64,000 nt of DNA from Marsupella aquatica (GCA_973895155.1 OZ316891.1:21628513-21692512), one strand, 5' to 3'. Counted from the stretch's first letter, positions 3,710 to 46,320 are shown. Program-made: numbers and translations. The notes: generated by a model not told the origin, from the letters alone.

Positions 3710-3913
3710 CTATTGTATATTGAAACATATAGCTAAAGATGCTACTAACATCAGGCAGTACTATACCTGGAGTCATACCCTTAATTAGGCACTCCCCCCT
3801 TTACTCTTATTGTAGGAAAGTAAATTAGGCACCCCCTTCAGTCAATCCAAGAGTGTCAAGTATCCTTTATTATAATGGTTGAGTAGCCCAATGTCCATAT
3901 GTTGTACACAAAA

Positions 3914-4355
3914 TGTCAAGGTGAGAAAAGATGTGAAGGACAGAAAAACAATTCAAGGACAGAAACTATGTCAAGGTGAGAAAAGGTGTCAATGAGATAA
4001 AAAAAATGTCAAGGTGAGGAAAAATAGAAAAGGTGTCAAGGTGAGAAAAAATTGTCAAGATGAGAAAGGATGTTGAGGAGGGAAGAGATGATAAGGTGAG
4101 AAAACGATGTAAAGGTGATGAAACAATGTTGAGGTGAGGGAAAGATGTCAAGGGTGAGAACCCGGGGTGAGACAAATATGTCATGGTAAGATAAAGATGT
4201 CAAGGTGATAAAAGATATTAAGGAGAAACAAAAATATAAACGAGACGTTACAAAGCCGGGGTGAGAAAAGATATCAAGAAGCAAAAAAATGTCAAGGTGA
4301 GAAAAAAGGTAGAGGTGAGAAAAAGATGTTAAGGTTAAAAACAATGTCAAGGTGG
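3914..4355 (+). repeat. Degenerate ~19-20 bp minisatellite (consensus GATGTCAAGGTGAGAAAAA), ~20 units
   Basis: Repeated tgtcaaggtgagaaaa motif. Confidence 0.9.
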
Positions 4356-8187: not shown

Positions 8188-8595
8188 TTTGACATATTTT
8201 CTAATCATGAGATCTTTTCTCCTTGACATCTTTTCCTAACTTGAACATCATTTTCTTGCCTTGACATCTTTTAATCAGCCAGGCATCTTCTTCTCAGCCC
8301 AACATCTTTTTCTCCCCTCCATATCTTTTCTCCCCTCGATTTCTTTGGCACTCCTCAACATCATTTTCTCTCCTCAACATTTTTTCTCACCTCGACATAT
8401 TTTCTTTTTCTCATATTGCTATCTTTGTCTCACCTTGACATATTTTATCTCATCTCGCAATCTTCTTCTCACCTTGATATCTTTATCTCATCACAACATC
8501 TTTTCTCACCTTAACATCATTATTCACCTTGCTTTCTTTTTCTCACCTTGACATCTTTTTTCACTTCAAGATCTTTCCTTCACCTTGATATCTTT
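8188..8595 (-). repeat. Same ~20 bp minisatellite as 3914-4355, in inverted orientation
   Basis: tttctcaccttgacatc units are the reverse complement of the left array. Confidence 0.9.
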
Positions 8596-24656: not shown

Positions 24657-27600
24657 AGGGCACTTATACCACCACTATTAATCAATAAATCAAACTCTGT
24701 GTTGGGAGGAGCAAGCGAGGTACCAAAACAGGAGCCTTTTCCTTGCCAAAAACAAAACCTGCCCGTACATAGCAATATGTGCAGTTCACTGGGAGCTGTT
24801 TTTACGATGCATGAGTATTCTGTTGATCTTCTGAATCCCCTGTTTTTGGCCAGAATTGGTCGGGGGCCTTTATTTTTAGACGATATAGTAACTCAATGAT
24901 TATGAAGCGACATCTACTGTAAGTGAAGTATATGTTGAGAGCAAATCTTAATTCACATGGTTTTCTACTACGTGCGAAATTCATATTTTGTCCTTTCTTC
25001 TTACGTGGATTATTTTTAATTAAGGATTTCCGTTCTAAAATTATATCTTATAAATCTTCTGATTTCTTCATTATGTTCCTAATGATGTCCTTTGTTACCA
25101 ATTTCTTTTTTGCCCACCCTTCACCGCTATTAGTCTTATACTCCATTCAAGTGTTACACATCACTAAAATTAGTCAGTATAATTTGAGTGACCAAGTCCT
25201 TTGTGACAAGAATATTTGTTTTGTAGTTGTGTATCTTTCCTACCATGATTAGTAACTACTGTGTGGTTTTATTCTCATTTTCCTGAAAGCCAGAAACAGT
25301 CCCATGCAAAATTGATGAGCTATTCACCCAAGGATAAGGGAATTTTGGTTTTGCAAACTGGTTTGGTCGGTCATTGCAAAGTTCTATTGGATTCTTAATA
25401 AAGATACACGTTCTGAATTTGACTTTTTAGTATTGAATATGTGGTTTCATAGGCCCAACTTGCATGTTCCCAGCCCTTCACAATGCAGTTGCCCCAAATG
25501 TCTCCCAGGCATGCAAGCATATCACTGAACCAGATGTATCCAGTTGAACATCCTGATGTACCAAGCCTGACGGCACCATCCATGCATTTTTTAAGGCAAG
25601 GTCTAGGAAGCTTTTTCCCAAAGGTACTAAGAGTGCAAATTAAGGGCCGCATGCTTGAATGAGGGGTCTCACATGCGAGTTGGCCCTAAAAGTTAAACAA
25701 CCTGGCCACCATAAATAATAGTGAGAAACATAGTGAATACATTGTTCTTGATTGCATATGTAAAACAATATTAGCCAATCGCTATATAACAGGCAGGTAC
25801 ATACTAGTATCACTCCAAAATTAACCTCTGAAAGATTAGGCTGTATCCTGGAATGTCAAAATTGCATAGAGTCACCCAAATAGCATTAGTAAGACTAAGG
25901 GTTGTCTTGCATGTGCACACTAGAAGAAACCGGCCCATTTTGAGACCTGAAGATGTGTGACTTGGCCAAGACCTTCATGAAATAGCGACTCCAAGGTTGT
26001 TGGTGTCATGTTAGTCACACCTTCTTGACTGAGTTTTGGTGAAGTTTTGCCAAGTCATGTTTACAACTTTTAGGTAAGTTGCAACTATAACTTAGTTAAG
26101 GCAATTAGGGTGAAGTTATACAAGTGACTCTACATTAGAGTACAACTTATGAGACCACTACATTTGAACCCTTAAACCTTAAAGTATGGGATCCGCGACC
26201 ATATACATATGATTTTGGATACACCATATGTCATTCCACATCAATTTAATAATAGTTTAGTCATACCATTCTAAACCATAATTACTCCTGACCCCATTTA
26301 GACACAATGAAGCCTCAGCCCCGTTCAAACCGAGAGCAGGCCGGCTTTGTCAAACCTTACTATTAACCTAACTTAATGCTTTTTGTAGTCAATCTCTAAT
26401 TTTCTCCATCTTTACCACTTGTCCTACCCTCTATACCAGCCATAGAACATTGGATGTCCAACTACTATATTTTTGCATGCTATATATATATATGCATATG
26501 AAGAAGGCTTGATCTTAGATAGCATTAGTTTTCTTTTAGGCTCATCATTTGTGCTCTTAATTAATGAACATGCAACAAGGCTATTGTAAGGTTAATCCTA
26601 GCCCTGTCCGTTCATTTAATCTTTGCTCATATTGTGTTGTGTCAAATTTGCTTTAGGGTTTACAGCTCATGTCAACGCAAAGTGGTCGAGTGTCACTGGG
26701 TTCAGTTCTCTCACTAAGTGTTAAGGTATGCATTGTGCGTTGCCTTTGGATACGAGTTTAGGGTGCGCGGGTTTTTCAACAGGAAACACACCAGCAGAGT
26801 GCAAATGGGAGTTGAAGGTGCGCGGGAACTCGGAGGTTTTTGTCAAGGAAAAACTTGGATGTCCATTGTGCTTACCAACAACCATCGTTTAGGGCGAGGA
26901 GCTTTACGGACTTCACTCCCGCTTGTCGTGCTTGAGTGTACATCTGCTCTCTATACTTTTGGGAGCTTTGGACTAGAGCAGATGATCGGAAGCCTCGGAC
27001 GAGAGACACAGACTCCAATATCCAGCTCGTAGATCAATCCGTGATTGATTTTGTCAGGTGTGCGACCTTCAAGCTCTTCTCCATTGTGCGCTTCCAGTTG
27101 AATGCTGCAAGGTCTGAATACTATCGGGAGCTTGCATTTGGGCCAAGGTTTAGGTATTTTGTCATTGGAGGACTGAGCTGTGGGTTTAGGCCGACTTACT
27201 ATGAGCTTATGTTGTTGCAACTGTGACCAATAACTGAGGAGCTGCGACCAGGAGCTTATTTTGTTGCAGCACTGCCGTGGACAAGGGGTTGTGGAGGATC
27301 GGGGAGCTGCGACGTAGAACTGAGGAGCTGCGAAAAAGTGGGGAGTGATCTTGAAGGCCAACTATCTAGCGTGAGGTGGATCATAGTGGTTGCAATAGCG
27401 ATCGGGCCCTTTTTTGCATTGGCATTGCCAGTAAGACAATCTGTGGATGCGCGAAAGAGTCGCAAGGAGTTGTTCTTGTGGGCAGAGATTGGAGTTCACA
27501 TTTGGTAAGTCCACCTCAATAATGACATACATTGTAGGTGGAGGCAATGTTATGGCCTCTTGTTGTCTTTAAACTCATTCTCCACTCACAAGAGAATGAG

Positions 27601-29037
27601 GATTGATTGTGTCCTGAGAAGCTTAACAATTTATGTTGTTGACATCGTCCACATTGAGTGACAGTGAGCTCAAGTCAGTGAGTGACCGATCGAAGGGGAC
27701 ATTTGTGCTCTTCATTACATGCTCGGGCAAGAGTGATTGATGTACTAATCGCAAGCGCTCCCAGGTATCCATTTGTCGTTAAGACTTGAAGCTTCACCGG
27801 GAGCTGCGACCGTCAGTGGGGAGGAGTTGGAGGTTGTGTTGCGCTCGTACACAACCTCCAAGGTACAAGGCAGGAGTTGTGCAATTTAAGGTGAGAGTCA
27901 GTAGCTTTTGGGATTCACCATCTTTCATCGTTGTCATTGCTGCTCTCGTCTATCGCTACGGCCGATTGCTGCTCTGCGTTTTTGCCATGGGTTGCCAGTC
28001 TGCCAGATGTTGAGTGAGACAGAGGCTACAACCTGGGTGCGCGGAGGTCCTCACTAATCCCATGGTTTACAGTTTGCAAAATGTGACAGCCCCAGTGCAT
28101 AGTGAGGTATAGGGTGTGTGAGGTATAGGGTGTTCTTACTCGTGCTACAGTCGCTTTGACTTGCTGAGTTCCAGCAAATTGAGTTTTAGGTGCGGTCAAT
28201 GAGAGTTGAGCTGTTTGAGCTGCGGTCACTGAGAGTTTAGAGTTTGAGCTGCGGTCACTGAATGCTGGCATTGAGGTGCACGCCCTTCACATTGATCAGT
28301 GAAGGCTACGGCCGGGGTGATTATGACAGTGATTCCAATGCAAACCGTCCAGGTAAGATTTATGTGACATTGTGTACAATGAAAGTGGCCCTGCTTATTG
28401 ACTGCTTAATGTTTGTGTTGCAACTGGCAGCAGATGCATGGAGTGCAGCGAAGGGAGGCGCTATTCATGTGAGCTGACAGGGGAGCTGGACTTGTGAGCC
28501 GTGGTTGCAGCTACGTCTTGGAGCTACGACCTATGAGTTGCGGCTAGAGCTACGACTTGACCTGAAGGTGACGCATGAAGAGTAATTTTGCAATCCATGA
28601 ATGTTTGTACTCAATGTTATAGATGCATAGGGTGGGTGTTGCATTTTGTTACTATAAAATGTCCGTGATGTCGTGAGATGTTCTGTTCCTTGGATTGAGA
28701 CAATTCTTAGATCTCTACATCAGCGATTATTATATGTCATGTCTCACCTCAGATCATGAACGTGATTGGTTGGAGACTATATTAATTGGGGAGGAGCTCC
28801 AATCCGTTGTCATTGCTTCTCAGTGGAGTGTTGTTTTAGTAAGCTACAGGGGGCAACAGAGCGCAAGTTGCTGTTTGCAAGTTCACGCCTGCTACCTGCT
28901 ACCTACGACTTCCGCCTGAAAGGTATGACATTCACATATGCGCATTTCTGGTCTCCAGTTGATCAATGTACTTATTCCCGCTGCCTTGAAATGGACCTCA
29001 AATTTCCATGCTCCAATACGCTACTGTGATCGAAGCC

Positions 29038-29175
29038 TATCACGATGCAAAAATAGAGGAGAGGCAGAATCAGAGCCCGGACACCAACGTGTACAGATAT
29101 CACGAAGCTAAAATAGAGGAGAGGAAGAATCAGTGCTCGGCTCGGACACCAAAGTGTACAGACATCATGAAGCTA
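29038..29175. repeat. ~60-bp tandem repeat (~2.3 copies) in the CACTA leader
   Basis: tatcacga.gc.aaaatagaggagagg.agaatcag...cggacaccaa.gtgtacaga repeated. Confidence 0.85.
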
Positions 29176-31101
29176 ACTACAAGCTAGCAGATAGGTCAAA
29201 TGCTCCCAAATCGAGTCAGAGGAAAGTTACTAAGACTACCTTCACAACTCTCAAGTCTGGAAAGTAAAAATCAGCCTGAGACACGTAGCAAGAACTGTTG
29301 TCTGCTAGGAACTGTTGTCTGCTTTCTTGGGGATCGTCATGTGTATGTAATTGCATACACATTCTACCTGAGGGGAGTATGACTGTACACCTTAGGTAGA
29401 ACCAAGTACTATCTATCGCATGATATAATTCCTCTACAATTTTGTATTAATGTTGCCTAAGTGCTTTGTTGTATTGTTTTGGTTGTAATGACGTCACTTG
29501 CATTTCATAGTCAGTCTTAGTTGGTTGGCTTGGTACTCATTTGCTTTTCACTCCCTCTGGCTAGTGAATTTGTCTATTGTTGCTGAGTTTTTTGCGTAAG
29601 AACTACATGTTCTTCACTTTCTTGATCGTACTCTCTCCCCTATGGAAGACTATTGGCTTGGGCTGCCAGCCTTCTCTCTGTTTCAATTTGTTGTCCCTAT
29701 GGTCAAACACTACTTGGTTAGTGGTTTTGCTCTATTTTTGTCTGTTTTGCCTTCAAGTAGGACATGGATGAATTGAGCTTGGAGGCAACAAAATGGCAAG
29801 GAATCTGAATGGTTCCAGAAGTATGTGTGCTGCATTTTGATCTGGAGAACCAATTGTAGAGTTGACTCTTTTTGAATGTTGTAGTCTATTTTGCCTTGAA
29901 CTGGGCCATGGATGAATTGAGCTTGGAGGCAGTTTTTTTCATTCCCATCTTCCTGAAGCCTTATCTGCTTTCTGCCACCCCCTTGTGGTGGGGACTTTTC
30001 TTGAAAGATCCTTATTGTGAACAGAGTTTGTACTTTGATTATGAAGTTTGACTGAGTTTCTGTTTACTGAAAGAATGTGACTGTGTAAGAGTTCCGTTTG
30101 GCAGTGGATTGGTTGAAGCACTTCCTGCTAGTGTGTTGTCCACAGCTCTTCAACCAGCTTTTGTATTCCTTGTCTTTCACCACTTACGGTGACATCAATT
30201 CAGCTAAGACCATAGAAGGTTCCAAGGCATCTAACTTGTAAAATCGCATTCTGTTACATCAAGGACTAAGGTGTTGGGTGCCAAAGGAGACAGCACAGCA
30301 AACATGCTGAAAAGACTTCAGGACTGGGTTCAACAAGGTAGTGAAGGTGCTTAGAGCCATAGTAAGTATGCATTCTGTATCCTTTCTCTGTTGATGTGAG
30401 CTTGTGCATAGTAGGAGTTGTAGTTGGCAAGAGTTCCATAAGGCCAAATATGAATAGTTCCAGAAGTATGTGTATGAACCAAGTGTAGAGTTGACTCTTT
30501 CTAAATATTGTAGTCTCTTTTGCCTTCAACTGGGCCATCGAGTACTGCTAGTGTATTCACCCCAATGAGCAATGCTTCTCCATTCAATCAGGTGAACGTA
30601 CAGTTTGGTAGGGCCAATGCCATGTGATCATGTACTTGCTCTATAAAATTCTGAAGATATAAGCATTTTCTGTTAGACCAGGCAACTTGGGAGTTGCTAA
30701 GTGTCACCTGCATCTGAGGGGCTACACCGGGGGCATCAGTGGAGGTTCACTTGCACAACACGACAGCCAGTGAATTTTCTCTCTGCTGCAACCTGCAAGG
30801 TGAGACTTTTGGTCCTTCTGGATGAAAAAACAGGATTTTAATATGATTGATATACATGTCCGTCGAGAACATGGGTTTATCACCAAGCTCTTTGTCTTAG
30901 GAAACTCATAAACTCAGAATCAAATATGTACTATGCACGTTTCATGCTATGTGTATACTATGACCTGTAGTTGGAACCAAGACAGTGAGTGGGAACTGAT
31001 TAGTTTAGGTTGGTTGTTGTTGGCGAGGCAAGTCGACCTCCTGCTCGCCTTGCTCATCAAAGGACGTGAATAGAGGACGTCACAACAAAAGCAACACTTA
31101 A

Positions 31102-31551
31102 ATGGTGAGGACCCGCAACGCTGAACATGTGCGGCTTGCACGCAAGGCAGAGATGTTGCGCCTTGAGTATGTCAGACTTGGGATCCTTCCAGCCCAGTCT
31201 GCATGGTACTTTGAGTACCCTGTTGTTTCCAGGAACAACTACAGCCGGCCTCTACCTGCTTCAGTACCCTTCCCGACATCCTTGGTATTTGTGTCTCTTG
31301 TACATGACCCGCCACAAATTAGGTGCCAAGGGTGTGTGCACAGTTGCCAATATGACTGTCCTGCCTGTAGGGCTTCTGGCCCAGAATTGGATGACCGTTC
31401 TCTTGGATGCCGATTTTTGCACAGAGCACAATGTATCATCTGGAACCACTCGCCATCCTGCAGTGTGCCTGGTGATGTCACTTGTCCTGCCCTCCCAGAC
31501 CCCACCACTGGTGGATTTGGTGTCTACACATGTTTGGATCACATGCTCTAG
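31102..31551 (+). CDS. CACTA cargo ORF 1: 149-aa Cys/His-rich, putative zinc-binding protein of unknown family
   Basis: ATG start MVRTRN; CxxC-x3-C-x3-CxxC...C...H...C pattern; upstream intron-like segment (donor 30799, acceptor ~30970); co-oriented with the other element genes. Confidence 0.5.
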   Translation: MVRTRNAEHVRLARKAEMLRLEYVRLGILPAQSAWYFEYPVVSRNNYSRPLPASVPFPTSLVFVSLVHDPPQIRCQGCVHSCQYDCPACRASGPELDDRSLGCRFLHRAQCIIWNHSPSCSVPGDVTCPALPDPTTGGFGVYTCLDHML

Positions 31552-32165
31552 AGGACCACTTGTCACACCACATGCATAGACCAGATACCATTGACCTATA
31601 GCTTAACACTCTGCCTTCAACACAGAGGATATTTACTTAAAATTTTGATGTATGAGCAATTTTGGGTCCAGGGTTTAGGGTCAACAGTACATAACTTATC
31701 CTAGTATGCCTGCACTAAGCAAAATATCCTAATTTAAGAGGCTAGCAAACTCGCTTAAAAGTCTCTATTGAAAGACTACTTTAATATTGCTTTAACCTGG
31801 TGAACATTGCAACGTTGAATGAATTAATGGGCCATGTGATAATATGCAAAATGTGATTTATGCCTCACTTATTTGTCTCAGCCACTATCATAACCTATTT
31901 AGGATGTATAAATTTCAACCCTTATGACACTGCTTCATACCAATCCTCTTCAAAGAATGCCTGTTTTACATGTCACGACTATTGTATGTGATTCAAATGC
32001 ATGAAATGTTGTTGCAGATCTCCTTTGGTGAATCATAGCCACAATTAAAATTGAGGTGTTGGTGGAGAAATTGTATTAGGGGATCAGTTTTGTGTGTGGG
32101 CTCAACATACCCAAAGTATGTGTGCTCTGCATCCTTGTGTGGCCATTCCAATTCATTGCAGTAGC

Positions 32166-32309
32166 AAATGCCTTTGTACCTTAAATGCTAAATATATTTT
32201 ACTTTCTGTGCAGTCTGCTAAATTGTAGAGTCTATCTAAATGCCTTTGTACCTTAAATGCTAAATATATTTTACTTTCTGTGCAGTCTGCTAAATTGTAG
32301 AGTCTATCT
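32166..32309. repeat. Perfect 72-bp tandem duplication just upstream of the PHD ORF acceptor
   Basis: aaatgcctttgtacc...gagtctatct twice. Confidence 0.95.
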
Positions 32310-32320
32310 CATGCGCAGGC

Positions 32321-33001
32321 ATGGCACGGCCTAAAATTCAAGCCAAAAAGCGTGTGACAGAGGTGAGAAACACAGGTGTACTTGGGGCAGATGCTACTAA
32401 CTTCTCTGCAAGTCAAATTTTCCAAAAGGCAGCTCATTGTTGTGCCATTTGTGACGATGGTGGGGGCCTGGTCATTTGTGAGGGCCCTTGCATGAGGCAT
32501 TTCCACCTCAACCCGGAGTCTGACCTTGCTGCAGAAAACAACTGTCCAGGGGTGGGCCTCCCGTCAACACACCAGGGAGACTGGATGTGCACTGATTGTT
32601 TGGAGAAGCAGGCTAAGTGTGCACAGTGTGGGAAGTTGGGGTCCTATGAGGGCTCTGTTGATGCTGCAGCAAATGTTAGAAAATGTCCAGACCGTTTTTG
32701 TGTGAGATTTTTCTGTTTTGAGTGTTTGCCTGCTCATGCCACAGCTTGCCCACTTCATAGGTGCAAGGCATGTGGTGAGCATGATGATGACTACTGGACT
32801 GACATAGTCCACTGTGCTAGGTGTCCCACTATGTGGCACTATCATTGCCTGAAAGATCATCAAGCAGAGGGTTATGCTTGTGACAGAGAAATCTATGATC
32901 ACTCTGCACATGGTGTTGATTGATGGATATTTTATTGTCATCGCCATGCCATTGATCCTACCTCGCGCACTCCTATGAGAGATCACATATCTTGGCTGTG
33001 A
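32321..33001 (+). pseudogene. CACTA cargo ORF 2: EDM2/NSD-type PHD-finger cluster (~226 codons) with one in-frame TGA at 32921
   Basis: CAICDDGGGLVICEGPCMRHFH...CTDC...CAQCGKLGS...CPLHRCKAC...CARCPTMWHYHCL; reading through the stop gives WIFYCHRHAIDPTSRTPMRDHI, matching EDM2 'LIYCxxHEIDxxLxTPxRDHV' (recalled, not aligned). Confidence 0.85.
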
Positions 33002-33593
33002 AGCTGAACATTGTACATGCACAGTGCACCTGATGTGGATGTACTATTTTTTGAGATTGCAGAGATTCCAATTTTGAAAAGGAGTTGGGTAGGCGAGTTT
33101 ATATAGGCAGCACTTATCTTGTGCTCTGGCGTCAGTGGCTGGGTACATGCCTATACAAACTTATCCTTACAAGCCTTCTTGGAAGTATTTAGGCTGAGTG
33201 GTCATTTTCATAAACACTTTCATCAGACTGCTAAATTAAAACAGGACTTCTAAGTTGTAAGCATATAAATTATCAGGCATGCAATTAATCAAATTGCCCT
33301 ATAAGTTTGTCATTGAATGTATCCTCCTTTACAACAAAATATGTATGTGCCATGACCAGTTGGTTGCACTTCATTTCACCACGGATATGGATTTTGTAGT
33401 ATATATTCAAACAATGTCCTGCATCCGTGCAGGTGCCTAGTACGTATTGTTCACATATCCCTTGTACCTATCAAAATCGGACCTGAGTACCAGTGGGCCA
33501 GATCAACTCAAAAAGCAGGAATTTTGTTGTCCTTATATTGTCAGGTGAACCCATTCTTCCAAAATTCACTGTCATCACGTAGGGTGTGTGTAC

Positions 33594-34463
33594 ATGGAGC
33601 CTGGGAAACGTAGAAAGTGTGACCACCCAGCAGTGTTTACAGGGGTCAGAGCGATTTTGGTCCATGGCCAGCATGGGTTGACCAAAGTGCATTGGCCAAC
33701 TGTACAGAAACGATTCTCTGAGCTCCATGGCACTGTAGTTCAGGACATCACTCCAGAGACTACACATGTTGTTGCAGGGACATGGCTATCAGTGATAAAG
33801 AAGTGGTCATGGTACATGAATTCTGCAATTACTAAGCAAGGCCTAAAAGTAGTTGAGGCCTCTTGGATCACAGATTCCATAGCACATAAGATTGTACAGG
33901 ATACTGAGCAATATGAGTTGTGGGAGGATGAAGAAGCTACTGCATCAGCTTGGGCTGAACAAGAAGTCTGGGAAGCAAAGGCACGGCTTGCTGATCTCCA
34001 ATATGGACCTGTACTCAACAAAGGACAGAGCTCTACAAGGCTGAAGAGTATGTTGGCTGAGGAGACGAAGCAACCAACCCCCATTCTGAAAGGGCTGAGC
34101 ATGGTATTTGTGGAGGCGGGAATTGGAGAGGTTAAGTGCAAAGTGTACAAGTCCACAGTGCTTGACCTAGGTGGGACAGTGGAGGAGAATATAACAGAGG
34201 ACACCACTCATGTCATTACTAAGTCATATCCCAAAGCCTGCCGCAAGTTTGGGAAGGGAGACATTCGCTTTTATGTCATGTCCCATAATGTGTTTGTGGT
34301 TTCATATGCTTGGCTTGTGGAATCAGTAGCAGCTGGGAAGCGTCAAAACCCAATGGACTATGATCTTTTTGACGCCTGGCCACGGAAGGGTCAGGATCCT
34401 TACAGAGAGGACTATGAGACAACAAGTGAGGAATGGGTCATTAGCGATTCTGAATCAGAGTGA
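33594..34463 (+). CDS. CACTA cargo ORF 3: intact 289-aa tandem-BRCT protein, BRCTs resembling that of plant DNA polymerase lambda
   Basis: Two units VF/LxG...GGTV/HGTV...TTHVV/I...SWITDS/AWLVES...YEL/YDL; basic NLS-like KRRK after the ATG at 33594; acidic C-terminal tail. Confidence 0.85.
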   Translation: MEPGKRRKCDHPAVFTGVRAILVHGQHGLTKVHWPTVQKRFSELHGTVVQDITPETTHVVAGTWLSVIKKWSWYMNSAITKQGLKVVEASWITDSIAHKIVQDTEQYELWEDEEATASAWAEQEVWEAKARLADLQYGPVLNKGQSSTRLKSMLAEETKQPTPILKGLSMVFVEAGIGEVKCKVYKSTVLDLGGTVEENITEDTTHVITKSYPKACRKFGKGDIRFYVMSHNVFVVSYAWLVESVAAGKRQNPMDYDLFDAWPRKGQDPYREDYETTSEEWVISDSESE

Positions 34464-34896
34464 GGAGTAGTAGCATCAGTTTGGACACAAGTTTTTTTGT
34501 ATAAATCAGATCATTGAAATAAATGTGATCTTTGAACTAATGTACCTTGTTATGGTTGGTGGCAGTTGGGCTTATTTTACTGTTGGCGGATTGTTGTTTC
34601 CTACTGCCTGGGGGTGTCACTGTAAACGTACATGCAGAGGCGGTACATTTGAGGACAGCGGAGGAGGTGGTGACACCCTCCAACATTTAGGAATTTTGTG
34701 TCATTCACTTGACAATAGGTACACTACTTGCGAACCTGTTTTTTTCTTTTGGGGTGGTTTAGGGTTTGTGAGAATTTAGTACACGTTATGTTAACTCTTT
34801 TGACAGATACAGTCAGGGATATATGGAACACAAATACCACCATTAGGCATCCTTGTTCACTGCTGTCCATGACTGCAGAGCTCCCAGCCTGTTACA

Positions 34897-37464
34897 ATGC
34901 ACCCTGGTCACCACCCTCCCCAGACCCAGCCCAGGGCACAGGCACTGCCTTTGCATCATCCCACAAGGATATCACGCCATGATAATAAGCTTTGGCAGCG
35001 TGAAAGGTTACGAACCAGACTTTCAGGAGCCAGTAGGATGAGATGGCCTTGTGCAATCTGCCAAGGATCCCGTACCAGGGGTCTGAATGAGGTTTGGCGG
35101 CATATCGCGGTTCATGGAAGAGATCCACGACATCGAGTTTGGAATGATCCTGCAGAGGAAGATTCTTCCAATGCTCAGGCAGCACCACGTGACGAAGGAA
35201 TTCATGTAGAAGAGATGGTGAGAGACATCTTCCAAGACTTGGATGCATTTCATGATGGGCTAGACAACGAAGAGGATACGGCTGTAGATGCAAGTGTGCC
35301 CCCTGTCGAAGAGCCTCTTGATGAGTTTGAGATAGGGCAGGAAACCCCTGGGCATGATGGGATGTTTGGCTCTCCCGTGCAAATACAGGAAGGTAGGAAG
35401 TCTTTGTACCCCGGTAGCAAATGTTCTAAACTGGGATTTGTCATCATGTTCCTGAACATTTGCGGCAACCACAATGTCCCCAACGTTTTGGTTTCTGAGT
35501 TGTTGGCATTCTTGCGAACAACTGTGCTACCAGATGGTAATATTTTGCCCAAGAACATGTACGAGGCAAAATGATGCATATCTAATCTTGGATTGAACTA
35601 TGATTCGATCCATGCCTGTCCTGATGGGCATGTTCTTTTCAGAAAGGAGTATAAAGAATCGTTGACATGCCCTAAGTGTGGGAAGCACAGGTATCGGAAC
35701 TCAGGAAAGTCTATGGTTCCCGCCAAGGTACTTCGTCATTTTCCACTCATTCCCAGACTTCAGCGGATGTTCAGAAGCCGTGCGACTTGGGCAACTGACA
35801 AGAAAAGTGATGATGGGCTACAACGACATGCTGCAGATTCAAGGCAATGGAAACTCATAGATGAGATGTATCCCGAATTTGCTGCTGAGCCGAGGAATGT
35901 CAGACTTGGGCTGTCATTGGATGGGGTAAACCCATTTGGAGACAAGAACAACAAATTTTCGTGCTGGCCTGTAACTATTTTGAATTATAACCTTCCTCCT
36001 TGGATGACTACAAAGCGATTTTTTGTTCTGATGGTCCTATTGATACCAGGGCCAGACAGTGCTGTATCTGCCAACATAGATGTGTTTCTGGCTCCCCTAG
36101 TGGAGGAATTGAGAAAGCTTTGGGAGGAAGGAGTTCTCACATATGATGTCCTACAGAGGCTTGGGAGGTTAAACCCATTCATCCTTAGAGCCATTGTCAT
36201 TCTGACTATAGCTGACTACCCAGCCCATGGGATGATATCAGGCCAAACAACAAAAGGATATTGTGCTTGTACTATCTGTGGGCGCAATGTCACCAGTGAG
36301 TACTCCAGAGCCCTGCAGAAAGTGATATACATGGGCCATCGTCATTTTCTGAAGGCAAATCACCCTTACAGAGAAAGACAGGCACTGATTGCACACTTTG
36401 GCAATGAGATTGAGCAACGTGGACCCCCGGCACGAGTGACCAAAGAGGAGATCAGGCAGTGGGGAGCATTGAGGGATGACTATATCAAACGAGGGGGCAG
36501 GGAAGATGGAGTGAGTGATCCAATAAAGCGATATGGTGTAAAAAGACTGAGCATATTGGACTTGGAGCTCAAGTACTGGAGGGTAAGCCTCTTGGAGTTG
36601 ATGCTAATTGGGATACATGTTTTGGTTCAGAGCATGTGCATTCATTTCGAAGAGAGAGACTAAACTTGAGGCATTTCCTGACGCTTTTGCATTGCAACGA
36701 TGCAGGAGTTTGAGCCAAGCAAACATAACATTGATGTTATGCACATTGAAAAGAATATTTGTGAGAGTCTACTCAGATTCTTGTGTGGAGAGAAAGACAC
36801 TGGTTCAGTGAGATTGGATCTTGAACAGAGGGGAATGAAACCCCATCTTTGGTTGAGGCCACATGCCCACAGAGCTGATGTGCTCTTGAAGTACCAAGCG
36901 CCCTATGTTCTGACAGACACAGAGTGGGAACTATTTGTGCAGAGGTTGAGTTCTTTGAAGGTTCCTTCAAACTATGGCAGTGCTTTCAAGAAGCATATCA
37001 TGACTAGAAAGCTTGGTAGTATGAAAAGCCATGACTACCATATGTTGATGCAACAGGTGTTGCCTTTATGCCTGAGGGGCCTATTGCAGAAGCCTGTTCG
37101 TACTGTGATCATGCGACTCAGTGATGTGTTTCGTCGTATTTGTGTGAAGGTTTGGGATGAAACACACTTCCCACAACTGACAGAAGATGTCGCTCAGGTG
37201 CTGTGTGACCTGGAGATTTATTTTCCTCCCGCATTTTTTGATGTCATGACCCACCTACTTGTCCATGTTGTGGAAGAGCTACACCAATTTGGGCCTGTGA
37301 GTGCTCGTTGGTTGTACCCTTTGGAACGGTACATGAAGCTACTCAAAGGTCACATGAGAACATATTACAAACCTGAAGCAAGCATGGCTAAAGGTTACAT
37401 CAAGGATGAGACTCTGGGATTTCTGACCGAATACATAGCACAATATGAGCATGTGAAGACCAGG
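34897..37464 (+). pseudogene. TnpD: TnpD/Tnp2-type CACTA transposase: exons ~34897-36582 and 36706-~37464, premature stop at 35572, C-terminus deleted
   Basis: Transposase-associated motif WPCAIC...VWRHIAVHG; YEAK*CISNLGLNYDSIHACPDG; RNVRLGLSLDGVNPF, YNLPPW, ADYPA; intron 36583-36705; HNIDVMHIEKN, KSHDYH, FPPAFFDVMTHLLVH, RWLYPLERYM; homology ends abruptly after QYEHVKTR. Confidence 0.95.
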
Positions 37465-38153
37465 GCGTCCTGCCAGTTCTGTTTTGCCTTCAAAGCCTGT
37501 GCATGCACCATACCAGCAGGGGGGGCTGACCTCTGATCAAGGTTGGCGAGGTGGTAGTAGTGGTAGATCCCAGGCTGGTGCCCAATACTATGGCAGGGGG
37601 CAAGCTCTAGGTTATGCCCGTGGTAGAGGCAGAGCAGGTCCAAACCCACAATCTCGTGGGTATGGACGTCCACCTCAACCATGGGGATGTGAGTATATAT
37701 CTATATGCCAGTTCTTTGTGAAGGCATGGCACTCCTGAATTTCAGACTGCATATCAATTTTTGACATTGTTTGGGATGTATTGGATTCAGACAACATGAA
37801 ATTCTGTCCACCTGCCATTGCATGCAGATTCTGCCCAACCTGATTGGGCAAATGCTAGTAATGATCAGTTCCAATGTCCACAAGGACAGACATGGGTTGA
37901 ACCAGGTTGGGAGGATGGTGGTGGGTCGTGGAATGAACAAGGTTGGGAAGGTGGTGAAGGTAATTGGCAGGGATATCAAAATTCAGTACCTACAAACGCT
38001 GGAAGAGGGGCAGGTAATGTCTGATCTTGTCAGCAATGGAAGAACTCATTATATGTGGAGTCCATTCACGTGGGGGGGACTCTGCACATGTATAATGATA
38101 GAAAATGTATGTGTGCAGGTTGGACAGTTGAACCATCGACTCAAGTATTCACT

Positions 38154-39388
38154 CACTAGAAGAATCCGAGGTGAACTGAGACCGCAATATATGACTCATT
38201 TTGGCTCATGTGACTTCATTGTGACTCAACGTGACTTGACCCACGCTGTGACCCTTGGAGTTGCAAAAGTTGAGACCAAAAAATGGAAGTCACTATTGAT
38301 ACTGGGCTTTGCAACTTGCTTGATACCCATTTGTGACTGATCTGTGACTTTATTGTGGAGTCTAGCCTTGTTTCGACGTGACTGCAATATGACTTCAGCG
38401 AGTCACATCGTAAGTCACATACATGACTTACCCGCATTCAACAACGACTAGCGTGTGACTATTTAGTGTCACAGTACATAGTGTAGCATAAATTACATAG
38501 CTAGGCCATTCATTCTTACCAAACGTTTAGCTGTCAGTGCAGTGCCGGTCCTTCCTGTCAGATTAGGGTTCTGAACACTCAACCTGGCCTCGGTCATCTG
38601 TGAACTCTTCTTTTTTGAAGCATCTGTTACAAAATAAGCTACTAACCTTGCCCACACTTTATCATCACAACTGGCTGGTGGAGGCATATCTGGCTTCTCC
38701 CCACCTTCCTTCCAAGCCTTATGCATTCTCCACCTCTCTTGCTTGATGATTTTACCTGCTGTACTCTCTAGGCAACCTATGTCCACGCCATCATCACTGC
38801 CCACATAATTCCATTTGGCAGCAACATTTTCACATACAGTCTTCCAATCTTTTGGATGCTGTTTTTTAAAATTAATAACACTCACATCTAACCAACGCAA
38901 TACTTCAGCTTTCAAATCAGCATGCCATCGGTTCTTGCAAGGACACTCAGCATCCACCCATTGTCTCTCATTCAACTTTACGTTCCCTTTCTTTGTCACC
39001 TCCCCTCGTGCACTGCTCTCGGTAGTATTGGGCGTTGTATTGGCCACCCCTTCATTCACCCTACCTGGGGTTCTGAAGCCACCTGGGAAAATACAATGCC
39101 ATTCATGCTTGAGAACTACATATAGCAGAATGGATGACGGCAACATTCAATGCTTCACTTCAAGAAAAATTCTTCAAACATACATACCTGTAGCTCTGCC
39201 TGTAGATGCCTGTGCAGGGACTGCACTCTGAAATTGTTGCGACCCTGGACCACCTGTCTAGCCTAGTACAGGGGCCGGATGATGTCACTTTCTAGGTATG
39301 TGTGTGCAAACATATGTACTGAAAACTAAGTACAAACTGTAGGAAAACAACTGAACATTCACCGACATACCTGTCCCCCTTCCGTGCT
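38154..39388 (-). mobile_element. Inverted copy of the CACTA right end (44457-44777) fused to a copy of 41522-42437, lacking the ~2.0 kb between them
   Basis: Begins CACTAGAAGAAT preceded by ACT; near-identical reverse complement of the two segments; junction at 38473-38474 with 2-bp CT microhomology; contains the duplicate 217-aa ORF 38493-39146. Confidence 0.95.
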
Positions 39389-39410
39389 GCATCTGCATAG
39401 GGGCATTAGT

Positions 39411-41521
39411 CACTAGAAGAAACCCACCCTTTCTGAGACCACAAAGAATGTGACTTGTCCGAGACCTTCATGAAACAGCGACTCCAAGGTTATTGGTGTC
39501 ATGTTAGTCACACCTTCTTGACTGAGTTTTGGTGAAGTTTTGAGGAGTCATGTTTACAACTTTTAGGGAAGTTGTAACTATAACTCAGTTAAGGCAATTA
39601 GGTTGAAGTCATACAAGCGACTCTACATTAGAGTACAACTTATGAGAGCACAACATTTGAGCCCTTCAACCTTAAAGTATGAGATCTAACCCAATACATA
39701 TGATTTTGGATACACCATATGTCATTCCACATAGATTTAATTCTAGTTTGGTCATACCATTTTAAACCATGCCATTACTGAGTATTCCATCATTATTCCT
39801 ACCCCCATCTAGACACCATGAAGCGCGCCCCAGCCCCATTCAACTGCAAAAAGGATTTGTCAAAGCTTGCTAACCTAACTTAATGCTTTTTGTAGTCAAT
39901 CTCTAATTTTTCTATCGACGTCTTCTGGTCGTGCCAAAGGCGTGCTTAATTATCACCCAATTTCAGCCTCACATATGTAGGTTGGGTTTACTTATTGCCA
40001 TGCCCCAGAAACCACCATGTTTCCCCGGCCCCCTTCATATATGACAACCAATGCATGCTTCATGTTCAATATAAGTCCAACTTAAATGTCCAACTTAAAT
40101 ATATATGATCAGCTCTTCACTACCCCAACCCTAAAAAAGTGTTCTTCATAATGGTAATGTGGGGTCATACCTGAATATTTGGCCACATTTTCACCAAAGG
40201 GGGTGGTTCAAAGTTGTGACTAACCACTCACCCCACATATAACTAAATTGCGTAAGTCCTTTGGTTTCAAAGGAAAAAACAAATTAGGCAAATCATAGAC
40301 TTTTGTGTCTCTTTTGTGAACTAATGTCTCCACTTCAATGGGAAGACAAGTGAGTGGTCTTCACGTTCGGCATTTCTCTCCCGCACAGGGTTTTGGGAAG
40401 GGTCTCCAAGGGAGTTGGTTTGCCTCAAGGGTTTGCAAGCCAAACGGAAGCTTTGCGTGCCATCGTCATTGAGCTGGTGGGAGGTCATCGAGGTCTTTGG
40501 AAGAGAGAGGTCGAATGCCTAGCGCTACCGGGTGAGGAAGTAGAGTATGGCAATGCTGCAACTTTAGGGATTTTATGACATCCTACTAACGACTGTTATT
40601 GGACCCGGCTTCCAGTTTTGGCGTTGCACTTTTTGAAGTTGAGGTTGGACCTTATTGCGGCCCGATGTGTATACACTCCTAGCCTTGCCGTCCTGAGCTG
40701 CGAAAGGGTTCTCGATTCTGTCCTTCTGCTTTCGTTGATCGTTGGGCAATGTGAGTAGTAGGAGGCGAGAAGAGCGAGTGTGTGTTGCATTGAGAAAAGG
40801 GAATGTGAGTAGTAGGCATCAAGAGTGATTGTGTGTTGCATCGACAATAGGCACTACGGGAAGCACTGTGAAGAGTTTGCGAGAATTTAATTCAACATTC
40901 AATAGACACTCATTCCTTGAAGCTAGGAGAGTGAATTCGATATTCAGTTGCAACTTGGGATCGAGAACCAGGAGCTTGTCACTTGGCTTGCATTTGGACT
41001 ATTCTTGCTGCGGATTGCTACGCAGCACGGCTTGGTGCTGCATCGCCCCAGGTAAAGCTGCAATCCCTATCTTTGCGGTCCTACGTCGCTGCAAGTTTAG
41101 TTGTCTCCCCACGGTCTTCTGAGCTTGGTGTCCATAGCTTACGGTGAGCATTGGAAGATCAACCTAGCGAGCATTGGAAGAGCGTTCGATCAAGTGTGGG
41201 TACAACATGCTGATACCTTTGAGCTGGGAGAGCTCAGAGAGTTGAGCTGCAAAGCTTGTAGTTGCGGACTCTATTTCAGTTTAGGCGAAAATGTTTTTGG
41301 TCTTTAGAGCTCATTGTAATGCAGATAAAAACTTTCAGTGTTTTTGGAGGTAAGTGAGTCTATAGAGGCGCTCAACAAACGCAAGGACCTGTTCTTGGGA
41401 GCAGAGAGCTGCAATACTGATCAACTGAAATTGGATGAGAGTGAGTCCAGGCCCTGCGGAGCTGAACTTAGCTGAATGACAAAGATTGAGCGTGCGCGGC
41501 TGAACTGAAGTGTGGCTCAAT
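39411..41521 (+). mobile_element. Second, diverged CACTA left end with its own non-coding leader
   Basis: CACTAGAAGAAA preceded by AGT (reverse complement of ACT); 39411-~39910 aligns by eye with 25918-~26405 with many substitutions, then diverges. Confidence 0.9.
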
Positions 41522-44419
41522 AGCACGGAAGGGGGACAGGTATGTCGGTGAATGTTCAGTTGTTTTCCTACAGTTTGTACTTAGTTTTCAGTACATATGT
41601 TTGCACACACATACCTAGAAAGTGACATCATCCGGCCCCTGTACTAGGCTGGACAGGTGGTCCAGGGTCGCAACAATTTCAGAGTGCAGTCCCTGCACAG
41701 GCATCTACAGGCAAAGCTACAGGTATGTATGTTTGAAGAATTTTTCTTGAAGTGAAGCATTGAATGTTGCCGTCATCCATTCTGCTATATGTAGTTCTCA
41801 AGCATGAATGGCATTGTATTTTCCCAGGTGGCTTCAGAACCCCAGGTAGGGTGAATGAAGGGGTGGCCAATACAACGCCCAATACTACCGAGAGCAGTGC
41901 ACGAGGGGAGGTGACAAAGAAAGGGAACGTAAAGTTGAATGAGAGACAATGGGTGGATGCTGAGTGTCCTTGCAAGAACCGATGGCATGCTGATTTGAAA
42001 GCTAAAGTATTGCGTTGGTTAGATGTGAGTGTTATTAATTTTAAAAAACAGCATCCAAAAGATTGGAAGACTGTATGTGAAAATGTTGCTGCCAAATGGA
42101 ATTATGTGGGCAGTGATGATGGCGTGGACATAGGTTGCCTAGAGAGTACAGCAGGTAAAATCATCAAGCAAGAGAGGTGGAGAATGCATAAGGCTTGGAA
42201 GGAAGGTGGGGAGAAGCCAGATATGCCTCCACCAGCCAGTTGTGATGATAAAGTGTGGGCAAGGTTAGTAGCTTATTTTGTAACAGATGCTTCAAAAAAG
42301 AAGAGTTCACAGATGACCGAGGCCAGGTTGAGTGTTCAGAATCCTAATCTGACAGGAAGGACCGGCACTGCACCGACAGCTAAACGTTTGGTAAGAATGA
42401 ATGGCCTAGCTATGTAATTTATGCTACACTATGTACTATTTTTTAGTGTAAACCCATACATGTAAACTTTGTTTTTTAGTGTACGTTCCCTGAATATTGA
42501 TCGATAACTTGTGTTTGCCATGCATGTGCAGAAAGCCCAATTGGGGCAAAGCCCTTCAAAAGAAGAGTTGAGGGCTGAAATTGTGAACACCCGGGCTCAA
42601 GAGGGTGCATCTGAATCCTCCAAGCATGTAAGTTATATGAGTTCTGATTGGTAATTGAATGACCTGCGTTGAATTTCAGGTGTACACTGTATATAACATT
42701 GATTGTGCATATATTGCCCAACATTTCATATGGAGTGATTGAACCTATACCCCTGTGTCATGTAGGGAGGTGGATCTTCACTTACAGAGATAAGTGGTCG
42801 TTTGAAGGCTATCGAAACATGTCTTCCAGAGATCAATGAACGTTTGAATTCATTGACTGACTTGTTCCATGTGAACTTCAAGACATTAATGGAAGCTTTT
42901 GTGTCGGTGAGAGATAAAATTGATTCCAATTCTGCAGGAGTTCCACCATCACCACTTGAGGTGGCAAAGTCGATGCACTCTTCTGGCATGCCAACGACAT
43001 GTAGGCTTGAAGGTAAGGCCTTTACAACTGTGTGGGATATGATTATTAAATGTATAGTTTGAATTGACATTGTTTGTTGAATGTGTTATTTTCAGTAACA
43101 TATATTGTGGTTGTTGTGTCCATAGAGAATAAGGCAGGTGCTACAGAGAAGAAGTATGAGAACCTGGCAAATACTCGCTGTAATTTAGAGGCAACAAAGT
43201 TGCAGTCTGTACAAGCAACTTGTTTGACAGAGGGCAGTCAACCATGTTTGGATGAGGATGACATTGGCAAGGGAGTGGATGATATCAATGTTGGGGCAAA
43301 TGAGGATATCAGCAAGCATGACAATGATACCATTGAGCCAGATTCATGCTATGTAGATCTTGACTCCATTGCAGAGATAAATGATTTGCAGAATGTATCA
43401 TTCTCAATGACAGGTGTGCCTCTTGTTGAGATAAATCCAACCAAAGAGTTAGTTGGTATGACACTCCCAGGTGATGAACCTGCTACTGTGACAGTCCTAA
43501 CAGAGGAACCTACTGAGCCTAGCTTCACTACTGTGAAGAGAGGAAGCATGCGCACACGAAGCAAGTCTGCTGGTGGGAGCAGAGCCACGTCAAAGGTTTC
43601 ATACAAACCTCCAAGAACAGTGCTGGTAGAAAGATCTAAGGTGGAAGTGGGGAAAGCACCTAATGCTGAGGGACAAAGTGGCTTGTTAGCTGTTGATGAG
43701 AGTGGAACACGAGTAGGATTTGCCAGAGTGCAGGTTGGTTCCACAACGTTCCATGGCAAGAGGATTCCCCCAGGTTATTCAGTAGTGTTAGTCACATTAC
43801 TAGTGAAACCTAAAGCTGTCCTTCCCATTTCAAACACAAATGATGATCCTCCTCAAAAGACACTTGGAGATGCTGCAGGTTCTTTGGTATTATGGCCAAG
43901 CAAGTTCATAGAGGATCCATAACAATGTCATGCCATTATTTGTTTGTAGTGTGAGTCATGTTATGTAGATTTTAGATGTCAAGAAGCAGTACAAGAATCA
44001 TGTCCTCTTGGAGATTCATAGTATCATGCATGTGCTTTCAGTTATCTCATCCTACAGTCATCAATTATGAGTTCCTGTTTTGTCTGAATTACATTGATCA
44101 CATTGTAAACTATTCCATTGGAATTCAAATGATCTTCATTTTTTAGCAAGATTGTGATTGTGTTTAATTCTTATGAATGTTTTATGTAGGATCTGCTTAT
44201 ATGATGCTTTGTTTCATGTGGATGTCATTCATGCTATGTTCATTTCTTGTATTCAATGTGTTATATTTCTAAAGTTAGAACATCAGGTTTCTATGTATTG
44301 TAATGTCAAGTGCTCTCTCTCCTTATGAACTGTCCCTCTGTGTTCATTAGTCATGGTTATAACTTGCATGTGAACCTTATTAGTTATAAACATGATTATA
44401 TAGAGTCCCAAATGGTTCT

Positions 44420-44777
44420 GTTGTGTGACGCGAGCCAGGGTCTCCATTGGTCTCTCCTGTGACACTAAATAGTCACACGCTAGTCATTGTTGAATGCGGG
44501 TAAGTCATGTATGTGACTTACGATGTGACTCGCTGAAGTTATATTGCAGTCACGTCGAAACAAGGCTAGACTCCACAATAAAGTCACAGATCAGTCACAA
44601 ATGGGTATCAAGCAAGTTGCAAAGCCCAGTATCAATAGTGACTTCCATTTTTTGGTCTCAACTTTTGCAACTCCAAGGGTCACAGCGTGGGTCAAGTCAC
44701 GTTGAGTCACAATGAAGTCACATGAGCCAAAATGAGTCACATATTGCGGTCTCAGTTCACCTCGAATTCTTCTAGTG
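44420..44777. repeat. CACTA right subterminal array of GTGACT/AGTCAC motifs (putative TnpA binding sites)
   Basis: >15 gtgac/gtcac motifs in both orientations next to the TIR. Confidence 0.8.
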
Positions 44778-46320
44778 GCAAGAGTCCTGAAAAGTGTGAC
44801 CCTTAGCAGCCCATAGATGTAGGGGAAAAGTGTGGGACCCAGGAACTAAACACAATCAAAAACAGCTTACGTGTAGGTGAAGTGCTTATTCAGTCGGATC
44901 TACTGCCATTTTTTGTATTCAAAGCTTTAAGTTTGGGACCTCAAGGGCCGGCCCTTGCCCTTGCATATCCTCCAAAGACGCAATCAGGACTGCCGGCTTG
45001 TCGCTTTGTTTGGGATGCCATGGGTTCATTTGAGGGCCGAAAATCAAAGGACTTTGCACATGCAAGACGGCCCTAATAGTGGTGGACATTGCAGGCTGGA
45101 CTGTAGGAAACCCCCGAGGAAACCTAGACTCCCTCTTTTGTGCTTTTGTGTAGGTCTTTGAAGCTCACTTAGCAACAGTGACACCTTGAAGCTGATATCA
45201 ATGTCAGTGTGCATTTACACCGTTTAATCGTAGTGCTTAGGTTTCAACTGTGCTTAGTTCTCTCAAGTCATGGAGCACACCTAGCCTGTTGTGTCAATCC
45301 ATAATTTGCACAATTAAGTACAGAACTAAGGTTACCCATGTTTAGTTACCATTTTCTAGAGGTCCGTGCTATTTCCATAATCTACTGCCCCAAAAGTCAT
45401 GATTGTTATCTTTATTCTGCACTAAATTATGTACTATACTGACGGTCTAAGCTTGGGTCCCAGAATGCTCAGGAAAACTTTTTGCTATAGCTGGTCAGTT
45501 TTTCTTTGTTCAATCCACTCATGTTCTCACAACCATTTCTCCCCCATCAGGCCCGAGCTCCTTCTGTGTGGGGGGGGGGAGGTCACTTCCATGGAAGTGG
45601 CATATCATGTGTGATGAAGGATAGGGCCATTTAAATGGATTTTGCGGAAAATATATTAAGTCTTCAAAGGAAATATAGGTCGGGTTCTTTAATAATTGCA
45701 ATAATTATGCATAGTTACATGTCATCAAATGAGTGGTGTTGTACAACTTTATATGAAGTGACTCAGGGGGTCATAAATGACCCTTGAAACCTTTGCATGT
45801 GATATAGGTACTCCATATAGTGAACCCCTGAGCTGCCGAGCAACCTTCCGCCCCTGGATATGATTGATATACCATATTGTATGTTTTACAGCCTCTTTCA
45901 ATGCCTACAGTAGAACTTACATTCTTTTTGGCAAGAGCAAAGAGTGCAGTACTTTGACACTTGAAGCGATTCTATTAGGATGTCTCAAAACCTGGCCATA
46001 CCAGGACAATGTCTTGGATCCCATGCATAAAATTAAGTTGTGGGAGCCAAACTTAATTTGGCTCCTGCGAGGAAAGCTTGTGGGTCCAACATTTAAGCAA
46101 TGACCTTAATAACTTTCCAATAACTTGACTAACAAATTCAGAAATCCAAAGATCTGGAAAATCTGTGATCAAAGGCACATGGGCTTGGGGCCTAATGGGG
46201 TAATGCTTGCTGCATTTGGGGGGCTGGTAATTCCAAGAATGAAAAAAAGTGGATATAGAGGCTATATGAGAGTGAGGTGAGGCTTTCACCCCGCCTTACC
46301 TGGCGGGTCAATGTTGCCTC

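Follow-up and report, generated by a model that had tools for sequence, protein, structure and literature searches.

The window analyzed here is a stretch of 64,000 nucleotides (nt) of Marsupella aquatica DNA (GCA_973895155.1 OZ316891.1:21628513-21692512), and all positions are counted from its first letter. It holds a CACTA (En/Spm-type) transposable element with the remnant of a TnpD-like transposase gene and, downstream of this, a predicted second gene in which a tryptophan (Trp)- and glycine (Gly)-rich region, here called the arm, precedes a conserved TnpA-like domain. The arm, its coding status and its putative role are the subject of this report, and the features of the locus are as follows:

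25918..44777, plus strand: host transposon, a CACTA element of En/Spm type with a length of 18,860 bp, whose ends and target duplication were read directly
34873..37465, plus strand: TnpD-like transposase gene remnant (Transposase_21 and DUF4218, from Pfam matches), ended by an internal deletion at 37465
37466..37688, plus strand: predicted exon E1, 74 amino acids (aa), basic and rich in RG and Tyr (10 K+R, 10 RG/GR, 5 Y, 2 W in QGW and PWG)
37828..38013, plus strand: predicted exon E2, 62 aa, acidic (8 D+E, 1 K+R, 6 W in DW, TW, PGW, SW, QGW and NW)
38119..38153, plus strand: predicted exon E3, first 35 nt, whose junction with E2 forms AGW and which breaks off at the ACT target of the nested element
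38154..39388, minus strand: nested non-autonomous CACTA element, 3' part, made of inverted copies of 44457-44777 and 41522-42437
39389..39407, minus strand: predicted exon E3, middle 19 nt, now inverted; loose ends of contigs run through this piece into 41522
39411..41521, plus strand: nested element, 5' part, beginning with CACTAGAAGAA and 82.5% like 25918-26403
41522..41539, plus strand: predicted exon E3, last 18 nt, joined to the middle piece in contigs
41648..41722, plus strand: predicted exon E4, 25 aa, with TGW formed across the junction
41828..42390, plus strand: predicted exon E5, conserved and predicted helical domain, at whose end the PF03004 match begins
42532-42627 and 42766-43012, plus strand: predicted exons E6 and E7, downstream of E5
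start at 43096, 43126 or 43138, stop at 43920-43922, plus strand: predicted exon E8

The host element has features by which CACTA/En-Spm elements are recognized, namely terminal inverted repeats beginning with CACTA (CACTAGAAGAA, exact at 25918 on the plus strand and at 44777 on the minus strand), a 3-bp target duplication (GCA, 25915-25917 and 44778-44780), a Tnp2-type transposase and short subterminal repeats. For the latter, AGTCAC/GTGACT was counted 11 times within the final 500 nt and three times within the initial 500 nt, with 0.36 occurrences expected per 500 nt. Open reading frames (ORFs) at 35575-36663 and 36682-37536 matched PF02992 Transposase_21 (1.2e-70) and PF13960 DUF4218 (1.4e-27), and a weak Transposase_24 match was obtained from the ORF at 41764-42417.

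Joining E1 to E4 (37466-41722) gives a predicted arm of 186 aa with 10 Trp (5.4%), 37 Gly, 23 Gln, 17 Pro and 16 Ser. We infer the splicing of E1 to E4 from the DNA, and the disorder of the arm from its composition only. The four predicted introns, all GT-AG and 105-139 nt long, preserve one frame into the conserved domain, and the open model from E1 to the stop, in which the arm is in frame with E5, comprises 762 aa and has no start codon. An earlier note on this DNA had described a Gly/Ser/Gln/Asn-rich stretch of about 190 aa that appears once splicing is applied and a nested insertion is undone, with six GW/WG motifs and four other Trp (DW, TW, SW, NW); its counts were borne out, the motifs being five GW and one WG in the contexts QGW, PWG, PGW, QGW, AGW and TGW. 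Two of the GW dipeptides (AGW and TGW) are indeed formed across predicted splice junctions, where the junction splits the Gly codon and the downstream exon then supplies TGG as its first complete codon. The anatomy given in that note was found again, in that a CACTA element bearing subterminal repeats encodes a TnpA-like domain to which the Trp/Gly-rich stretch is fused. The designation of the stretch as the N-terminal region of TnpA holds only relative to the conserved domain, because the deletion at 37465 removed the upstream sequence and with it any start codon.

The occurrence of 10 Trp in 186 aa has a binomial P of 1.9e-4 at a background of 1.3%. Trp and Gly are adjacent six times, compared with 3.6 times in shuffles (p 0.10), and since this adjacency does not go beyond composition the signal of the arm lies in its Trp and Gly richness and not in the dipeptide. 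The predicted arm is bipartite, with a charge of +9 in E1 and of -7 in E2 (which has six Trp, one Phe and two Tyr), and over its whole length it is 9% aromatic (Trp plus Tyr), 20% Gly and 12% Gln. One heptamer, AGGTTGG (37540, 37904, 37940 and 38117), encodes four of the five GW dipeptides, and this sharing hints at old internal duplications; Tandem Repeats Finder returned no real array on the arm exons.

Variation within the family was assessed on seven of eleven public runs. Contigs of runs X1, X2, X4 and X5 (three coded organisms) were aligned to 34800-44800 and contigs of X5, X6 and X8 to 37440-38160, and all of these behave as DNA; no contig of run X9 aligned to 37440-38160. Summed word depths reached the thousands both over the transposase and over E1-E2, and E1-E2 was covered by contigs with no difference from the window, for E2 at family depth (X1, X5). 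The CACTA family is young, abundant and high-copy. In X5 there were 31 substitution sites over 37440-38160, of which the exons held nine (444 nt) and the introns 22 (244 nt; Fisher 5.8e-5), the exons being 4.4-fold less diverged than the introns, and four of the five indels listed in X5 over this interval were intronic. Five of the nine changes in exons were synonymous (about 105 sites) and the other four, R to H, G to S, Q to P and G to A, non-synonymous (about 339 sites; p 0.04). The lower divergence of the exons than of the introns argues that the predicted arm is real, selected coding sequence of this high-copy CACTA family.

The arm is interrupted by a nested insertion, as the earlier note had claimed; plain excision of 38154-41521 does not restore it, since this loses the 19 nt of E3 that are now inverted at 39389-39407. 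The 3' part of the nested element consists of two pieces that are joined by a 2,019-bp internal deletion, namely 38154-38474, which is the reverse complement of the last 321 nt of the host element (44457-44777, 98.8%), and 38473-39388, which is the reverse complement of 41522-42437 (916 nt, 99.5%). The element's own CACTAGAAGAA ends lie at 38154 and 39411, and its 5' part had an about 10-fold lower depth in the public runs, with a contig loose end at 41525. ACT (38151-38153) and the inverted AGT (39408-39410) are the two copies of the target duplication, each adjoining a transposon end. Contigs join 38150 to 39410 on opposite strands (depth 1776 in X1, where neighboring bins had 2555-3044, and depth 27 in X5), the contig loose end at each of 38153 and 39410 continues into the sequence at the other, and loose ends after 38153 in X2 and X5 correspond to the reverse complement of 39389-39407 and continue into 41522. 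From these contig junctions the intact E3 is therefore composed of 38119-38153, the reverse complement of 39389-39407 and 41522-41539, and the restored exon keeps the frame and yields the TGW junction.

Two steps would account for this arrangement. A 3.3-kb non-autonomous relative, made up of the 5' part, 916 nt from the TnpA-like gene and a 3' end of 321 nt, would have inserted at ACT in reverse orientation, and recombination between the 916-nt inverted repeats would then probably have flipped the intervening DNA including the 19 nt of E3. Reversed-ends (alternative) transposition, which is known for Ac (PMC1592236), seems less likely because nested insertion and recombination explain every junction with fewer steps.

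The window copy cannot make the protein. Contigs of X1, X2, X5 and X6 diverge from the window at 37465; to the left of this position the transposase frame goes on in the other copies, and the sequence to the right is preceded in them by an intron end with an AG acceptor. An internal deletion has therefore fused the transposase ORF to the E1 acceptor, out of frame, and has removed the start of the protein. In addition, a nonsense change at 35572 is private to the window copy (T, compared with A in all contigs of four runs), and E3 is disrupted.

Other rearranged copies were also seen. A contig of X8 joins E2 to E7 (37866 to about 42776), and joints in X2 and X4 skip 0.3-5.6 kb, the public runs containing many internal-deletion derivatives of the CACTA family. 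A version of E1 in which the run of seven G at 37519-37525 is one G shorter would, in the window copy, fuse the truncated transposase frame to the Trp-rich frame.

Relatives of the conserved domain were collected in a HMMER search with E5 as proteins with E-values up to 1e-3. This gave 61 relatives, 26 of them at or below 1e-10 and seven at or below 1e-30, and the four that could be named among ten looked up were all from liverworts (Calypogeia fissa, Riccia sorocarpa with two, and Riccia fluitans). A PF03004 match with an E-value up to 0.01 was found in 16 of the 25 relatives scanned, two of which were above the gathering score (P0003 with 32.2 bits and P0019 with 30.9 bits). E5 of the window on its own reached 21.4-22.3 bits over profile positions 1-50 of 138, below the cut-off of 28.7, while the remainder of the profile would fall into later exons. 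The TnpA-like assignment is thus better anchored by the matches of the relatives than by the 21.4 bits of the window. In the ESM Atlas, E5 retrieved Streptophyta clusters only, with PF03004 in 32% of the members of one cluster. Word-index protein searches with E5 against longer and near-length proteins and with E2 against longer proteins gave no match, the ESM Atlas gave no usable match for E2, and scans of metagenomes, for which the protein of E5 and 47 nt of E2 served as queries, gave none either; a search of solved structures by sequence returned none for E5 and only noise (E>5) for E2.

For the comparison of the region ahead of the domain, 31 of the 61 relatives were left out since they have fewer than 40 residues before the match, and 18 of the remaining 30 have at least 50 residues before the equivalent of the E5 start. 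In the 50-residue zone before this point Trp was present in 12 of these 18 relatives, in Pro/Gly/Gln-rich contexts, and Trp accounted for 24 of 900 residues there compared with 18 of 2290 in their other non-domain residues (p 8.7e-5). Among N-terminal regions of at least 60 residues in the relatives, GW or WG occurred in seven of 22 and a W-[VI]-P type motif in seven of 22. A Trp-bearing low-complexity zone before the domain is thus a trait of the family, of which the ten-Trp arm is an elaboration in the lineage of the window.

The liverworts Calypogeia and Riccia have PF03004-type (TnpA-like) proteins (P0003, P0019, P0022 and P0061). In the sections consulted of two papers from 2026, TnpA-like proteins are described as restricted to flowering plants, a claim on which helper proteins of this type in liverworts bear.

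For the role of the arm we tentatively favor, with somewhat less than even confidence, a multivalent Trp docking platform for host proteins placed before the TnpA-type domain. The four small exons would encode a disordered arm directly N-terminal to a Transposase_24-type, presumably DNA-binding part, and the arm would dock host proteins at the repeat-studded ends of the element. The preferred class of partner would be the host transcription or anti-silencing machinery, with Argonaute (AGO) as the main alternative. Arabidopsis TnpA is described as binding clustered motifs at the ends of Spm, activating silenced copies and causing local hypomethylation that needs ROS1/DML2/DML3, and the mechanism of its action is called unknown in the same source (preprint 10.64898/2026.08.24.746577); disordered regions of TnpA and a model of the TnpA-TnpD complex have also been described (PMC13547354). 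For transcriptional partners, the rule for acidic activation domains was applied, equation 3 of which asks for a 39-aa tile with a charge of -13 to -8 and at least six W+F+L (PMC10550315). The tile at residues 80-118 of the arm, with a charge of -8 and six W+F+L, falls within equation 3. Since the Trp cluster of E2 also just satisfies this rule, composition alone cannot name the partner. The predicted arm would be a concrete piece to mutate, being selected, adjoining the DNA-binding part and built on exposed Trp, and it would mark the site of recruitment if the partner were a coactivator or the demethylation machinery.

Several observations weigh against a docking platform. None of the nine exon variants hit a Trp codon, but this outcome has a 57% expectation by chance and so gives no sign of Trp-specific constraint within the family. 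In a minority of copies E1 has six instead of seven G at 37519-37525, which shifts the first 18 codons; for X1, X2 and X4 the share of these copies in the depth was 5-13%, and for X5 it was 40%. The relatives carry zero to five Trp and none has a comparable arm. Local alignments of the arm with the N-terminal regions of 14 relatives were not significant (best uncorrected p 0.013, 300 shuffles), and for this reason no residue-level homology is claimed for the arm; a five-residue word that it has in common with P0061 had a p of 0.15. AlphaFold models from single sequences had E5 helical at a pLDDT of 45 and the C-terminal 109 aa at a pLDDT of 42, too low for a fold search. Finally, equation 3 was satisfied by one tile only, the next most acidic one having a charge of -7, and the stricter equation 1 by none.

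The main alternative to the docking platform, although we regard it as unlikely, is an Argonaute hook, in which the arm with its GW/WG dipeptides would fit into the Trp pockets of an AGO PIWI domain and, held on the subterminal repeats by the TnpA-like domain, would sequester AGO or redirect it at the element's own copies. It was assessed with the predictor of Karlowski 2010 (PMC2910046), which was re-implemented following Table 1, supplementary file 3 and sections 5-8 of the methods of that paper. For calibration on the published supplementary list, a half-matrix sum of 306.45 reproduced the ics values 61.29, 43.78 and 30.64, and the negative dos values in the published material imply that domains retain trailing residues; the cut-offs in that source are a dos of 6.99 and an ics limit of 2.14. 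In line with what the earlier note had proposed, the spliced model passed both cut-offs at residues 43-151 (109 aa, four GW/WG), with a dos of 26.97 (P 3.1e-4 from the published fitted distribution) and an ics of 1.97. The size of this domain lies within the range of 92-654 aa given in that paper, in which 20 candidate genes are reported for the whole Arabidopsis genome (PMC2910046), and none of the 191 domains from the six unspliced frames of the window passed. The two flanking domains of the spliced model failed, as did E2 alone on its ics (2.81). However, 612 of 2000 shuffles of the arm region also passed both cut-offs, from which it follows that the pass is mostly compositional, and Gly-rich low-complexity proteins are named in the source as typical false positives of the predictor, with those of the published candidates whose scores were consulted scoring higher, at 64-130 (PMC2910046).

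The composition itself points both ways for an Argonaute hook. Reference hooks are high in G, S, W, N and D and low in Y, L, I, M and C. Trp (5.4% in the arm compared with 6.3%) and Gly (19.5% compared with 21.3%) are near the reference values and L, I and C also fit, but Gln (12.4% compared with 3.8%), Pro (9.2% compared with 3.2%) and Tyr (3.8% compared with 0.4%) are 3- to 10-fold above them, and S, N, D and K are below. The relatives retain only Trp and composition, as would be expected of a hook, yet none of the 61 reached a dos of 6.99. Three WG/GW motifs are enough to let SPMMV P1, a viral suppressor, bind AGO1 (PMC2904775), whereas of the three Trp pockets one is apparently blocked in plant AGOs, and the interface there is described as less conserved than in animals (PMC12477606).

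The full form of this proposal, a transposon with its own AGO hook that would bind its own subterminal repeats, capture AGO and blunt or redirect small-RNA silencing at its own copies, we consider quite improbable. If it were true, it would be a counterpart among DNA transposons of the viral suppressors that act by GW mimicry, and it would provide a mechanistic handle on the anti-silencing activity of TnpA. The literature search returned no report of a transposon-encoded AGO hook, with the supplements of the preprint, which possibly bear on linker composition, outside its scope; with Argonaute as the partner, the arm would be the first such hook traceable in the literature searched.

A role in self-association or RNA binding seems doubtful to us. 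Here the RG/Tyr-rich E1 and the aromatic E2, as low-complexity sequence, would give weak multivalent contacts between TnpA-like molecules or with RNA and help to bridge the repeat-rich ends within the transposition complex. The richness in Gly, Gln and aromatic residues given above, the 10 RG/GR of E1 and the opposite charges of E1 and E2 are consistent with such contacts, as is the modeling of Arabidopsis TnpA as dimers that bridge DNA together with TnpD, but dimerization is assigned there to folded and not to disordered parts (PMC13547354).

The arm could also be a passive flexible linker, either a spacer of transposase and DNA-binding parts or the leader of a TnpA isoform, with its Trp/Gly richness due to drift in a young family, an explanation to which we give little credence. 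At the flanks of Spm DNA-binding domains, disordered linkers and exon junctions are described as common (preprint 10.64898/2026.08.24.746577), the searches with E2 in the word index and the ESM Atlas detected no homologue of the arm, the region differs widely among the relatives, and most GW dipeptides come from the single heptamer AGGTTGG. The 4.4-fold lower divergence of the exons compared with the introns, the higher rate per site of synonymous than of non-synonymous changes and the enrichment of Trp, a residue that disordered regions usually contain little of, at the position of the arm across the relatives argue against drift. That the exons are not coding and merely chance open frames in G-rich DNA is very improbable, for although few stops occur in purine/G-rich DNA (a further frame stays open from 37765 to 38340, and one on the minus strand from 37395 to 37700) and the exon junctions are predicted from DNA, four canonical introns hold one frame into a conserved domain, and substitutions and indels are concentrated in the two predicted introns within 37440-38160, both of which the rival frame at 37765-38340 spans.

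Further features of the window lie outside the predicted second gene. Within the CACTA element, upstream of the transposase gene and in its orientation, ORFs with NSD-type PHD fingers (32294-32923) and a region encoding two BRCT domains (33549-34463, plus strand) were found, preceded by a perfect 72-nt tandem duplication (32166-32309); the PHD/BRCT ORFs (32166-34463) are either a captured piece of a host gene or a third gene of the element. Arrays of roughly 18-nt AAGGTGAGAAAA-like repeats at 3910-4354 and 8351-8576, mutually inverted and about 4.3 kb apart, are probably the repeat-rich ends of another transposon. A 449-codon open frame on the minus strand (18711-20060) had no Pfam match.

Compared with known systems, the arrangement in the window is that of maize En/Spm TnpA and of Arabidopsis TnpA-Spm1 and TnpA-Spm3, which are likewise encoded by a second gene downstream of a Transposase_21/DUF4218 transposase. 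The likeness extends to the CACTA ends, the 3-bp target duplication, the subterminal repeats and a PF03004-linked domain in the element, and also to the flanks of the DNA-binding part, since Spm elements have disordered flanks and exon junctions there (preprint 10.64898/2026.08.24.746577), as the window appears to have. Two tri-helical helix-turn-helix motifs, together with binding to subterminal motifs, are the criterion for a TnpA-like DNA-binding domain. The window differs from the TnpA systems in that its match to PF03004, at 21.4 bits, falls short of the cut-off and that the named relatives of its protein are liverwort proteins, and the words tryptophan, Argonaute and AGO, as well as any Trp/Gly-rich arm, are absent from the searched passages of PMC13547354 and preprint 10.64898/2026.08.24.746577.

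With the AGO hooks of NRPE1, SPT5L/KTF1, SDE3, GW182 and SPMMV P1 the arm has in common several GW/WG motifs, a Gly-rich and hydrophobic-poor composition, a pass on both compositional cut-offs and an apparent retention of Trp but not of sequence in the relatives. Unlike these hooks it has an excess of Q, P and Y and less S, N, D and K, contains only six motifs with four of them in the scoring domain, and is carried by a predicted transposon DNA-binding protein. With acidic aromatic activation domains, in the sense of the acidic exposure model, E2 has in common its charge of -7, its six W, one F and two Y and a single equation 3 tile, but it fails equation 1, is without a Leu-rich amphipathic pattern, and the 20% Gly is unusual for this class. 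VANC of the Mutator-type VANDAL elements is described as transposon-encoded, sequence-specific and countering the silencing of its own family (PMC10398659), which is the kind of role proposed here, although it comes from another transposon superfamily, is an unrelated protein and has no Trp platform reported in the part of that source consulted.

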